A DNA stretch of 59,696 bases from a bacterium (GTDB taxonomy: Bacteria; Patescibacteriota; Minisyncoccia; Phycocordibacterales; UBA1550), in NCBI GenBank assembly GCA_030649835.1, contig JAUSES010000058.1, positions 1-59,696 of the forward strand, read 5' to 3'. Within the stretch, counting starts at the first letter, position 1; every line of letters begins with the position of its first letter. Positions 18,582 through 52,093 of this stretch are shown here, piece by piece. The notes beneath the pieces were generated by a model. That model did not search any database. It had not been told where the DNA came from and saw nothing but the letters and a program-made list of their open reading frames with translations. Made by a program: the position numbers and the translations under genes.

Positions 18582-18692
18582 AATTTGACAAAAATACCAT
18601 ATTGTGCTACGATGGCTGAGTACAAGATTTCTCTTGTGCCTGATTCGGCAGGTTACCGAAATGTAGCACCTTAAAAATTGAAAGGAAATATC

Positions 18693-19355
18693 ATGAGCGC
18701 AAAAAGCGTATGTGATGCAATAGGAAAAACCCACGAGTTTATGCTTGCTCTCAAAAAGGCAGGGTTTGATGATGGGCTTTTCCAGCAAACAATCAATTCC
18801 AGAGGCAACAAACTTGCTAAGGCGATGTATTCTGCCGTTACTGGTGGAGCACAGGTGGATGATCGGTTTGAGTTGATCAACACTTTCAGCATTGTTGTTC
18901 CGAAAAACTATGACCATGCAACGCAGCTCTCTTCGTTTAATAAAAAATACCGCAAGGAGTTTTATTATTACAACGAGGCTATCACTGACAAGAACTATGC
19001 CAATGCCACGACAAAGCTCGAGCCAGGGCGTAGCCTCAAGGTGAAAGTTTTCCAAATCAAAAAGACGGTCACATCTGAAGACTGCTTGGAGTACTTGCGT
19101 TCGCAAAAAGCTATTTTTGTTGGTGCTCAGGGCGCAAGCCTCGCTTACGAGCAGGGTAAAGGAGAGCTTCCCATTGGTCGGTGGACGGCGTCCTTTGATG
19201 AAAAAAATGCACTCTGGGCCGACGGCGGCCACGGGGTGCCGCGCCTCGACCGCGACTCGGGTGGCGGTTTCGAGTTCTACCTCGGCTCCTTCGTGGACGG
19301 CTGGGGTGACGGCCGCTGCCTCCTTTGCTTCTGCGACGAGTCCTCAGACGCTTAG
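18693..19355 (+). CDS. DGR target (variable) protein
   Basis: The C-terminal 40 codons are the VR. ATG at 18693 follows GAAAGGA. No signal peptide or TM helix visible. Confidence 0.85.
   Translation: MSAKSVCDAIGKTHEFMLALKKAGFDDGLFQQTINSRGNKLAKAMYSAVTGGAQVDDRFELINTFSIVVPKNYDHATQLSSFNKKYRKEFYYYNEAITDKNYANATTKLEPGRSLKVKVFQIKKTVTSEDCLEYLRSQKAIFVGAQGASLAYEQGKGELPIGRWTASFDEKNALWADGGHGVPRLDRDSGGGFEFYLGSFVDGWGDGRCLLCFCDESSDA
19218..19337 (+). repeat. DGR variable repeat (VR)
   Basis: 120-nt alignment to TR at a fixed offset of +468. 21 internal mismatches, 20 at TR adenines. Confidence 0.9.
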
Positions 19356-19685: not shown

Positions 19686-19805
19686 GCCGACGGCAACCAC
19701 AGGGTGCCGAACCTCTACCGCAACTCGGATGGCGATTTCAAGTTCAACCTCGGCAACTTCGAGAACGACTGGAATGACGACAACTGCCTCCTTTGCTTCT
19801 GCGAT
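19686..19805 (+). repeat. DGR template repeat (TR)
   Basis: Rich in AAC codons (frame reads ...NLYRNSDGDFKFNLGNFENDWNDDNCLLCFCD). The 3' 21 nt are identical to VR (IMH-like). Confidence 0.9.
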
Positions 19806-19822
19806 TCATTCAATTTCTTCCC

Positions 19823-20225
19823 CTATTTGTTAGGGGAAGTTTTGTCTCCGAGATTTTTCTTCCACCCACCGAGCATGCGGCCGACCTCATCAAGGTATAG
19901 AATAAGTGCTCCGTACTGCGTGTGATTGAGTATCTTTTGTTCCCACCCGAGTTGGAGGAAAAATTTTAATAGGTCAGTTTTTCCTATTGCTTGGGACACG
20001 AGAGAAAGTTTTTCAAATTTATCATAAGCAAAACATGCCCGAAATATCAACTCAAGAATTGAGAGGAACGTGTCATCAATTTTTATACCAATCGTATCAC
20101 GGTCGACACGTTTTAAGTTTGCTAGGTGAGTATGCCACGTTTGGTATGCTTCCTTTGCGCGTACCAGTACGAGCGGGGTCTGTACGGGGGGGGGGTAACT
20201 TTATAGTATTTTTATGTTCACTCAT
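19823..20225 (-). pseudogene. avd: DGR accessory variability determinant (Avd, four-helix-bundle family), reading frame interrupted in a C10 run
   Basis: The frame downstream of the run reads PLVLVRAKEAYQTWHTHLANLKRVDRDTIGIKIDDTFLSILELIFRA...YGALILYLDEVGRMLGGWKK. The only ATG (20225) is in the +1 frame upstream of the run. A 9-C run would give an intact 133-aa protein. Confidence 0.7.
20186..20195. repeat. G10/C10 homopolymer inside the avd 5' region, 18 nt upstream of the RT ATG
   Basis: Counted directly: 10 consecutive G on the plus strand. Confidence 0.95.
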
Positions 20226-21197
20226 AAATATCAAGATATCATATCTCTCGAAAATTTACTTGCGACATGGGATCGTTTTGTTCGTGGTAAGCGTCACAAA
20301 AAGGATGTCATTGCATTTCAATTAAATCTTGCAGATAATCTCATAGAACTTCACGGTTCGCTTAGAGATAGAACATATAAGCATGGTGGATATCACGCAT
20401 TTAATATCTCTGATCCAAAACCGAGGAATATTCACAAGGCTACTGTGCGAGACAGGGTGCTGCATCATTTAATATACAAAGAATTATACCGTTATTTTGA
20501 CTCCCGTTTTATCTACGATTCATTCTCTTGCAGAAAAGGTAAGGGCACCCACCGCGCACTCGATAGGTTTAAATATTTTGCAGGACAGGTATCGAAAAAT
20601 TACACACGCACCTGCTATGTACTGAAGGGGGATATTAAAAAGTTCTTTGCAAGCATCGACCACGTGGTGCTGATGAAAATACTTGAGCGACATATTGAGG
20701 ATGGGGAATTGCGTGCTCTTTTGCGTGAAATAGTCTCGAGTTTCCATTCAGCTATTCCTACTATTGGCTTACCTCTTGGTAATCTTACCTCACAACTTCT
20801 GGTGAATATTTATATGCATGAGTTTGACATGTACGTGAAGCAAGAACTCAGAGTAAAATATTATATTCGGTACGCTGATGACTTTGCGGTTCTATCGAGT
20901 GATAAAAAGTATTTAGAGGAGTTATTACCGGAATTTCATTATTTTTTGAACAACAAATTACACCTTTCCTTACATGAAAATAAAGTCTACATCAAGACGT
21001 ACGGATCGGGGGTAGATTTTTTGGGATGGGTACACTTTCCTTACCATCGGCAGATTAGAACTGCTACCAAGAAAAAGATAATAAAGAAACTGAGGGGGTA
21101 TCCGAAACCCCAAACAATAAACTCATATCGTGGGGTGCTGGGTCATGGGAATACGCATAAGGTTCAAGAGAGAGTAGGGGTTTTCCGTTTTTTTTAA
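20214..21197 (+). CDS. DGR-type reverse transcriptase
   Basis: N terminus ISLENLLATWDRFVRGKR, LPLGNLTSQLLVNIYM motif, YADD catalytic box (IRYADDFAV). Confidence 0.93.
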   Translation: MFTHKYQDIISLENLLATWDRFVRGKRHKKDVIAFQLNLADNLIELHGSLRDRTYKHGGYHAFNISDPKPRNIHKATVRDRVLHHLIYKELYRYFDSRFIYDSFSCRKGKGTHRALDRFKYFAGQVSKNYTRTCYVLKGDIKKFFASIDHVVLMKILERHIEDGELRALLREIVSSFHSAIPTIGLPLGNLTSQLLVNIYMHEFDMYVKQELRVKYYIRYADDFAVLSSDKKYLEELLPEFHYFLNNKLHLSLHENKVYIKTYGSGVDFLGWVHFPYHRQIRTATKKKIIKKLRGYPKPQTINSYRGVLGHGNTHKVQERVGVFRFF

Positions 21198-51398: not shown

Positions 51399-51416
51399 GG
51401 GGGGGGGTGATATAAT
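51399..51416 (+). promoter_or_regulatory. G9 homopolymer abutting an extended -10 element (TGATATAAT)
   Basis: Nine G at 51399..51407, then TG-A-TATAAT at 51408..51416, 39 nt before ATG 51455. Confidence 0.45.
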
Positions 51417-51454: not shown

Positions 51455-52093
51455 ATGAAAAAAATTATTCTTATCGTAATCGGAATTCTCCTCGTTGCTC
51501 TTTTGGGAAGATTAGGATGGGCGTATTATCAAATAAAAACAGATTTAGGTTTTTATTCTGTCGACATTGATATTGGTGGAGGGGTCGAAAATCCTGCTAA
51601 GTTTTCTGTCAATGGAGTAGATGCACAGAAAATCACCGTAACGGCTTTTTCTGTTCCAGCAAATGTTATCGCGAATCCCGTCACCAGCCAAGTCAAATCA
51701 GAAATGGATAAATATGGCGTTGATCTCTACACACTTAAGCAAGGAGTAACAAAGATGGTAAAAAATATAGATGGAATAAGCCGCATCATAGTGTATACAA
51801 GAAGTATGAATAGTATAGAAAGAGAGGTGAATTCCTCTCGTCCTGATGGATCTAGTACTCAATTAACCGCCACGATAGATTTAGACGCAAAAGATAAATT
51901 ACCGCTAGCCATAAAAGATATGGAAGACAAATTTGCTGTAGACTGCAAAAATAGTTCAACCAAAGAATGTTTGGGGTCTAAAATGATACTAGATTACATA
52001 AAGACAAACTGTGTGGTGATTCAAAGTAATGAAGAAATAAGTGCCTGTATGGTTGCTGGCGTAATGAAGGCTTGGGCAAACCAAGCTCGGTAA
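51455..52093 (+). CDS. hypothetical membrane-anchored protein
   Basis: N-terminal TM helix (IILIVIGILLVALLG). No family recognised. Confidence 0.5.
   Translation: MKKIILIVIGILLVALLGRLGWAYYQIKTDLGFYSVDIDIGGGVENPAKFSVNGVDAQKITVTAFSVPANVIANPVTSQVKSEMDKYGVDLYTLKQGVTKMVKNIDGISRIIVYTRSMNSIEREVNSSRPDGSSTQLTATIDLDAKDKLPLAIKDMEDKFAVDCKNSSTKECLGSKMILDYIKTNCVVIQSNEEISACMVAGVMKAWANQAR

Follow-up and report, generated by a model that had tools for sequence, protein, structure and literature searches.

Introduction

In bacteria of the candidate phyla radiation (CPR), 90% of diversity-generating retroelements (DGRs) have architecture B3, 'TR-(avd)-RT' (Wu et al. 2018, PMC5758913), TR being the template repeat and RT the reverse transcriptase. 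The DGR described here lies in a 59,696-nt stretch of DNA from a bacterium of the Patescibacteriota (assembly GCA_030649835.1, contig JAUSES010000058.1; the whole stretch is hereafter called the window). It shares with the B3 elements their gene order and orientation, adenine-specific mismatches, a chromosomal location and the Patescibacteria context. However, the descriptions of B3 that were consulted mention neither a repeat in avd nor broken avd frames, nor the 12-nt overlap of start regions or the terminator-like hairpin after the TR that we find here. In the window a run of ten C separates the avd start codon from the body of the gene and puts the two out of frame, a simple repeat is conserved at this position among related DGRs, and we propose that this repeat probably serves as a slipped-strand switch of the accessory protein Avd.

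The repeat resembles contingency loci, and the ones with which it was compared are the poly-G/C tracts of Campylobacter jejuni, Neisseria and Haemophilus and the G-tract switch of a Bifidobacterium breve pilus (PMC4965091, PMC5084427, PMC9187656). As in these loci, a start codon is closely followed by a repeat with a unit length not divisible by 3, in-frame and out-of-frame alleles of an otherwise intact gene are found, the repeat is the sole polymorphic site between near-identical sequences, and the avd tract lengths of 7-17 are within the range listed for contingency loci. Yet contingency loci gate surface structures or restriction-modification, whereas avd is an accessory factor of targeted hypermutation, and mutability rather than a phenotype would be gated. 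Their hosts are host-adapted pathogens, whereas the avd repeat resides in an uncultured Patescibacteria lineage; and unlike those loci the avd repeat is also part of the region in which the partner RT gene starts divergently, and in many copies it adjoins a hairpin. Clonal switching is a property of contingency loci, whereas the avd repeat is known here from sequences alone.

Mutation rate itself can be switched in a general manner, by tandem-repeat indels in Salmonella mutL and by homopolymer shifts in mismatch-repair genes. Like the mutL repeat, the avd repeat would be an unstable repeat toggling a mutation-rate gene, i.e., a second-order and reversible control of evolvability, but mutL switching changes the genome-wide mutation rate, whereas the avd tract would affect a single variable region of ~120 bp via a retroelement. 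Programmed frameshift and slippage sites are the third group of described systems, with examples such as the A AAA AAG of dnaX and its hairpin, the A/T runs and stem-loop of insertion sequence (IS) elements, the +1 site of prfB, the poly(A) rescue of endosymbionts and +1 slips at CCC-C. The avd locus shares with these a homopolymer run between a short upstream open reading frame (ORF) and a functional body, and in about half of the relatives a stem-loop next to the run. It differs in that frame relation and run length are unconserved, all three phases occur, di- and heptanucleotide repeats substitute for the homopolymer, no stall codon is found and the window tract has no significant adjoining structure.

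In literature searches no paper was found that ties DGRs or Avd to phase variation, homopolymers, poly-G/C, slippage, frameshifting or contingency loci, although a mention in Paul et al. 2017 cannot be excluded, and neither of two large DGR surveys (PMC5758913, PMC8144416) mentions a repeat in avd. Both kinds of system, the DGR and the contingency locus, are known, and their combination is new as far as the literature was searched. The control of DGR activity is largely unknown, and unrestrained mutagenesis of a working ligand-binding protein should be costly; an unstable repeat in avd would be a concrete and testable control point that can be read directly from sequence data.

Results and discussion

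A C-tract separates the avd start codon from the avd body

The start regions of avd and of the RT gene contain the following features:

20196..20225, minus strand: avd leader, the ATG at 20225-20223 and nine codons (MSEHKNTIKL), reading into the tract
20186..20195, minus strand: C10 tract (G10 on the plus strand) between avd leader and avd body, one nucleotide too many for the ATG frame
19823..20185, minus strand: avd body, 120 codons and a stop in the Avd frame, without a start codon of its own
20097..20225, minus strand: out-of-frame peptide of 42 aa that ordinary decoding yields with C10, stop codon 20099-20097
20214..21197, plus strand: DGR RT, 327 aa (Pfam RVT_1, E 4e-22)

The ten-nucleotide tract is located as stated in the preliminary description of this DNA, 18 nt upstream of the RT start at 20214 with TATAGT in between, and it begins 30 nt after the avd ATG. 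This ATG, described there as the only one and as off by one frame upstream of the ten C, indeed opens 'MSEHKNTIKLPPP', a frame that carries one nucleotide too many and stops after 42 codons. The Avd frame ('SYPPPVQTPLVLVRAKEAYQTWH...GGWKKNLGDKTSPNK*') opens two codons upstream of the tract and continues uninterrupted until its stop at 19825-19823. It has no ATG, as had been noted, and we find that it has no GTG or TTG either before the TTG at 20050 (codon ~59), a start at which would cost Avd its first helix. An internal start downstream of the tract was rejected for this lack of start codons. The GTG inside ATGAGTGAACAT was rejected as the avd start of the window, as TAA closes its frame, which is open in 6/81 relatives, and the GTG chosen by gene callers in relatives was rejected as the true start, as conserved P-L-V-L-V residues are located upstream of it. 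The head-to-head overlap of the avd and RT starts, 12 nt at 20214-20225, is likewise present as described, the avd ATG being the complement of the RT His-4 codon CAT.

The prediction that nine C would give a 133-aa Avd holds both in silico and in nature. Deleting one C from the window sequence yields a 133-aa protein with family matches from residue ~20 to the C-terminus, namely to NCBIfam DivGenRetAVD (NF033474; E 3e-13, 49.9 bits, below the curated cutoff of 80) and to Pfam bAvd-like (PF22296; E 1e-9, and 8e-10 for the body alone; 39.2-39.6 bits, just under the cutoff of 40). In a close relative with C9 (L176) avd is in frame and encodes an intact product of 132 aa, 'MSEHKETLKPPPAQAPLVLVR...'. 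PF22296 is matched by 28/28 sampled relatives (best E 6e-17), and the public homologues of the window Avd are precomputed as PF22296 and named 'four helix bundle protein'. A single-sequence AlphaFold model of Avd is all-helical with low confidence (predicted local distance difference test, pLDDT, 52), and PDB sequence and profile searches with Avd gave no significant match.

The G10 run is the longest homopolymer in the window, in which ~0.03 G/C runs of at least 10 are expected from base composition. About half of the other homopolymers, of 7-8 nt, are contained in long ORFs that are intact, and systematic indel errors at homopolymers are therefore not apparent in the assembly.

A simple repeat is conserved at the 5' end of avd

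Scans with the window RT protein found 80 loci in GTDB species genomes and 80 metagenome contigs. These 160 relatives are nearly all Patescibacteria/Paceibacteria metagenome-assembled genomes (MAGs), their RTs are 52-89% identical, and all adjoin avd and TR-like DNA. After duplicates were removed, 122 distinct loci (L numbers below) retain avd and come from many independent MAG and metagenome projects. Tract lengths were read from assembled sequences, the window organism being represented by one sequence, and frames were assigned from tblastn anchors; the labels ON and OFF presuppose standard initiation and decoding, and kinship among the loci inflates some of the statistics.

Comparison with homologous DGRs, which the preliminary description had suggested, revealed a simple repeat at the position of the window tract in 106 of the 122 loci, poly-C of 7-17 in 97 of them (mode 10) and (CT)n, (TC)n or (CA)n in 9. 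At the same place, just upstream of the RT start, two further contigs (L062, L150; nt 1-55) carry at least 7 copies of (GTCTGAT)n, which reads (ATCAGAC)n from the avd ATG; both contigs end inside this repeat, the avd body lying outside the contig. Repeat units are thus of 1, 2 or 7 nt, none of them a multiple of 3, and the repeat is specific to this site, as the 693 kb of flanks contain just one other G/C run of at least 9 away from it.

The repeat is anchored to avd and not to RT. In 73/106 loci 28-31 nt separate the repeat end from a conserved Avd codon, whereas the RT ATG is anywhere between 4 and 66 nt away from the repeat in nearly all loci, and position-wise profiles show a single conserved flank position, the base next to the repeat (A in 81%, avd strand). 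In 81 of the 106 repeat-bearing loci the avd ATG is the exact complement of a conserved RT His codon, with the start overlap seen in the window; the frame of this ATG is open up to the repeat in 79/81, compared with 6/81 and 15/81 for the other two frames, and the avd leader appears to be translated into the repeat. P-L-V-L-V-R, the residues that directly follow the repeat, are conserved although their synonymous codons vary, indicating that the Avd frame is entered at or before the repeat. Relatives that lack the repeat have no poly-proline (e.g. MSEHKETTKPAMTQTPLVLV, MIKHALVLVK), so the tract is not needed by the Avd protein.

Among loci with the conserved ATG the reading-frame states are distributed as follows:

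Repeat-bearing loci (n = 81): in frame 16, +1 (as in the window) 43, +2 22
Repeat-less loci (n = 10): in frame 9, +1 1 (L025), +2 0

The in-frame contrast between the two groups is significant (Fisher p = 2e-5), and in 75 of the 106 repeat-bearing loci (71%) the part of the Avd frame that precedes the repeat has no ATG, GTG or TTG. The modal configuration, with 26 loci, is C10 in the +1 state. In the Nomurabacteria contigs L165-L174, from Rifle and other groundwater samples, an open frame leads from the GTG inside ATGAGTGAACAT into the Avd body ('VNICLKIAPPPQAQAPLVLVR'), and judging from this frame the apparent +1 OFF allele can be rescued in that lineage by an alternative GTG start.

The tract of L025/L106 (PFOY01000007.1) is interrupted, with the remnant CCCACCCCCACCCAC, and avd is out of frame; this copy may have been locked OFF after its repeat lost purity.

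The broken frame is hardly visible in public annotation. Public Avd homologues are often of 113-115 aa, started at an internal GTG, or fragments (P0001, P0003-P0005, P0031, P0033, P0121 and others), and the public record of the source contig holds a 58-aa Avd piece. As gene calls mask the frame break, surveys that score Avd as present overstate the number of competent elements. Protein length differences within 90% clusters were tried as a proxy of ON and OFF and rejected, since in the best case, cluster 4 (132 versus 115 aa), the DNA was identical and the gene call alone differed.

Tract length varies and the avd body is under purifying selection

Near-identical and closely related loci differ in tract length:

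L032 versus L112/L113: C11 versus C15, flank identity 100% over 500 nt
L133 versus L137: C10 versus C9, flank identity 99.8% over 500 nt
L056 versus L061: C11 versus C10, flank identity 96.8% over 500 nt
L064 versus L158: C12 versus C9, both in frame, flank identity 91.2% over 500 nt

The same is true of the clade of the window (Avd 86-89% identical), in which the tract is C10 in the window, C11 in L141, L161 and L162, C13 in L164, C8 in L163 and C9 in L176, so that of the six closest relatives examined all but L176 are out of frame (8, 11, 11, 11, 13). Between the window (OFF, +1) and its closest relative L141 (OFF, +2) the tract is the sole indel across the whole of avd, and dN/dS (the ratio of nonsynonymous to synonymous substitution rates) of the avd body is 0.07 at a dS of 0.83. 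Other closely related pairs give 0.03-0.14, and the distant pair L133/L067 0.36. In out-of-frame relatives the avd body retains its normal length (median 119-120 aa).

At least 13 public contigs begin or end exactly at the repeat (contig ends: L007, L047, L048, L062, L068, L086, L098, L114, L119, L136, L149, L154), and several contigs have N gaps or artefactual poly-C/G runs of 27-51 nt at this place (L034, L066, L084, L109 and L175 belong to the same set of contigs). Such breaks are as expected of a heterogeneous or hard-to-sequence tract. In L163 (Ga0172380_10000158, Avd 86% identical) the RT is split at nt 203-1156 into three ORFs of 69, 71 and 179 aa, and this locus is either a decaying element or the product of further indel errors.

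A putative slipped-strand switch gating Avd

A conserved repeat whose type is interchangeable, length polymorphism, mixed frames and a frame that is kept where the repeat is lost are together the signature of a simple-sequence contingency locus. The repeat unit is not divisible by 3 and is situated inside a reading frame, downstream of the start codon, and within the family near-identical sequences differ in repeat number, giving in-frame and out-of-frame alleles of an intact gene. We propose that the tract is a conserved slipped-strand on/off switch, or a dimmer, that gates Avd and so DGR activity, a reading to which we attach somewhat better than even probability. Of the three readings offered in the preliminary description (error, pseudogene, switch), the last is the one favoured here, a relative with C9 (L176) being in frame, whereas the pseudogene does not stand and an isolated error is unlikely.

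According to this proposal, translation of avd would start at ATG 20225 and pass through the C-tract before reaching the four-helix-bundle body of Avd, and the tract would be a conserved hypermutable repeat whose length sets the reading frame. With 10 C, ordinary decoding would end in the 42-aa dead-end peptide and give no Avd, whereas 9 or 12 C would give the full-length protein. The switch would be flipped by slipped-strand mispairing during replication, and the window genome would represent the OFF state, one contraction short of ON; a leaky rescue by slippage of RNA polymerase or ribosome on the same tract may coexist. In the Bordetella model, DGR cDNA synthesis and homing depend on Avd as well as on the RT, so the tract would be a heritable and reversible gate on targeted hypermutation. 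We infer that switching would occur at a high rate within populations, that OFF alleles would make no Avd and that DGR activity would follow the state of the tract.

Whether the proposal extends to a large Patescibacteria DGR clade, in which an unstable mono-, di- or heptanucleotide repeat, often with a hairpin, would make targeted hypermutation phase-variable, we regard as evenly poised. If so, most cells would keep a frozen receptor variant while a minority diversifies, a second-order bet-hedging, which would explain the many CPR DGRs that look inactive as well as the shortened Avd annotations in public records. Contingency loci would then extend from host-adapted pathogens to free-living or episymbiotic ultra-small bacteria, and from phenotype genes to a gene that sets the rate of variation. 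The lower-than-average activity of Patescibacteria DGRs (clade 2) in a global survey (PMC8144416) fits a switch. The tract lies within 1 kb of the variable repeat (VR), so that groundwater and lake metagenomes already available allow VR diversity to be phased with tract length by means of long or paired reads.

Observations at odds with a switch, and possible programmed recoding

Several observations weigh against the switch. Significantly fewer than a third of the alleles are in frame (16/81, binomial p = 0.009), +1 is in excess (43/81), and the three phases are unequal (chi-square p = 6e-4). Selection for OFF could account for the excess of +1 and the deficit of in-frame alleles, but these are also compatible with a preferred route of recoding. 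Identical sequences from different samples share an out-of-frame length (L102/103/104; L139/140/143), and nine contigs from different samples (L165-L171, L173, L174) are 100% identical over 1 kb and all C10. Switching would accordingly be too slow to randomise the consensus states, or some of these sequences represent the same population. In every group 50-75% of the DGRs were recently active (PMC8144416), which is hard to reconcile with 70-80% of fully OFF alleles and would call for a minority of ON cells or leaky expression. The tract length of the window could still be mis-assembled. Finally, the mean minimum free energy (MFE) of the sequence directly 3' of the repeat on the avd strand is -8.4 kcal/mol, compared with -4.9 in control windows of the same gene; this hairpin tracks the repeat when repeat-bearing and repeat-less loci are compared (p = 0.0014), and by analogy it looks like a frameshift stimulator, which plain DNA phase variation does not require.

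These observations lead to the main rival, programmed recoding instead of DNA switching. Here the tract would be a slippery site from which Avd is made constitutively, at a low and tuned level whatever the DNA length, either through RNA-polymerase slippage (on a run of at least 9) or through ribosomes shifting +1 or -2 on CCC-C/Pro-Pro-Pro or -1 on C CCC CCC, and the drift in DNA length would be a by-product. This explanation is compatible with a switch, and taken as a replacement for it we consider it possible but rather unlikely. CCC-C and poly-proline are prone to +1 shifts, and a homopolymer together with a hairpin gives multi-frame shifting. The hairpin reaches an MFE of -8 kcal/mol or lower in 51% of the loci, and covariation, tested on the named structure against shuffled and slid controls, gave 25 two-sided changes where 8.6 are expected, with pair counts exceeding both controls. 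The excess of +1 with its modal C10, the stability of out-of-frame lengths across independent samples and the strong purifying selection on the avd bodies of out-of-frame alleles all agree with recoding. Yet there is no fixed frame relation, as the phases are split 16/43/22 over tracts of 7-17 nt, unlike known programmed frameshift sites, and a fixed frame relation combined with a conserved slippery motif is absent from the family. (CT)n, (CA)n and 7-nt repeats, which stand in for the homopolymer, suit DNA slippage and are poor substrates for slippage of ribosome or RNA polymerase. No stop or rare codon is positioned to stall the ribosome, and no significant difference in hairpin strength separates out-of-frame from in-frame alleles (p = 0.19). 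In the window itself the hairpin is weak or absent, the tract having no significant adjoining structure (z = -0.1).

A strong hairpin of 8-12 bp adjoins the repeat, 0-35 nt 3' of it, in about half of the loci (e.g. L001, L030, L044, L056, L073, L079). Its stems differ by subfamily (GCACAAGCAC/GTGCTTGTGC, GAGAATTACC/GGTAATTCTC, CACTTTTGCC/GGCAAAAGTG), and candidate roles are a frameshift stimulator, a slippage promoter or an operator-like palindrome.

Alternative readings: a role on the RT side, sequencing error and pseudogenization

The repeat might instead serve mainly the other strand, the G-tract acting in the promoter or 5' region of RT as a spacer-length rheostat, or in a structure of the RT-sense RNA, with a collateral effect on the avd frame. 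We find this improbable. The tract lies close to the RT ATG, with TATAGT between them, and if the TR RNA ends at the terminator-like hairpin described below, RT probably has its own promoter inside the 5' region of avd, which holds the tract. In addition, the other long G run of the window, G9 (51399-51407), is located 3 nt before TGATATAAT, upstream of a gene. However, the repeat keeps a fixed distance from the Avd body and a variable one from the RT ATG. A promoter motif anchored to the tract was rejected, as no -35 or -10 element holds a constant position relative to it, the adjoining base being the only conserved one, and a promoter scan found no plus-strand site and no more sites than expected by chance. 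A role on the RT side would also leave unexplained the open leader ORF (79/81), the fact that no unit length is divisible by 3 and the intact frame of loci without the repeat. That tract length has an additional influence on transcription of RT is plausible but lacks support.

An error of sequencing or assembly confined to this contig, in an organism that has 9 (or 12) C and an intact avd, has in our view a small chance of being true. Long G/C homopolymers are hard for short-read chemistry, the public contigs that break exactly at the repeat include several with artefactual runs or N, and the C9 relative is intact. But the other 7-8-nt homopolymers of the window sit inside intact long ORFs, 71% of the repeat-bearing relatives, from many independent assemblies, are likewise without an in-frame start, as are five of the six closest relatives, and identical out-of-frame lengths recur in independent assemblies. 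Even a real error in this contig would leave the conclusion for the family unchanged.

A pseudogenising mutation, by which avd and hence the DGR would be dead in this genome, is strongly disfavoured: although the frame is broken with no alternative start codon and the close relative L163 has a fragmented RT, the low dN/dS between two alleles out of frame in different phases, with the tract as their sole indel, excludes long-term pseudogenization, RT, TR, VR and target ORF are intact in the window, and the same break occurs family-wide alongside full-length avd bodies.

Anatomy of the element

The remaining features of the DGR are all on the plus strand:

18678..19355, plus strand: DGR target gene, a 225-aa ORF with the VR at its C-terminal end
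19218..19336, plus strand: VR, a 119-nt direct repeat of the TR, 82% identity
19394..19421, plus strand: 12-bp hairpin and T-run, terminator-like, after the target gene
19686..19804, plus strand: TR, 29 adenines, 20 of them substituted in the VR
19817..19849, plus strand (TR/RT sense): terminator-like hairpin (CTTCCCCTA...TAGGGGAAG) and T-run, directly after the TR, overlapping the avd stop codon

VR and TR differ by 21 mismatches, 20 of which are at TR adenines, and the two repeats agree over their last 21 nt; in the target frame each of the 29 TR adenines is at the first or second position of a codon. The RT has the motif IGLPLGNLTSQLL ([LIV]GxxxSQ), taken directly from its translation. With a DGR-type RT and an adenine-specific TR/VR pair, the element is a complete, chromosomal DGR of a Patescibacteria-type bacterium. 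Pfam and NCBIfam have no family for the 225-aa target, Rfam gave only sub-threshold chance matches, on the target-gene terminator, and an exact look-up in a public gene index has the window RT not on record.

The gene order is target/VR, TR, inverted avd and RT, with avd on the opposite strand between TR and RT, matching architecture B3 in order and orientation. As this layout is known for most CPR DGRs, the inverted avd noted in the preliminary description is ordinary and no peculiarity. All 138 related loci with an Avd match likewise have avd inverted relative to RT, between TR and RT and head to head with RT. In two relatives of the same RT clade (L126, L127; nt ~1380-1500) the architecture is another one, a TR-like sequence standing directly upstream of RT with no avd between them.

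The preliminary description also had a transcript running from TR to RT as antisense to all of avd. This is doubtful given the terminator-like hairpin and T-run after the TR, an element that is found at this place in 96/116 related loci compared with 29/483 control windows (6%). The TR RNA looks like a short, discrete transcript, as far as this pattern goes, and its 3' hairpin could matter for priming.

The G9 at 51399-51407, an intergenic run, is the only other one of G or C above 7 in the window. The ATG at 51455, 48 nt downstream of it, starts a gene that follows rpsI and a terminator-like hairpin closely; its product, of 212 aa, has a membrane helix at the N-terminus and matches no Pfam family. 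This run may be a second, promoter-type phase-variable locus.

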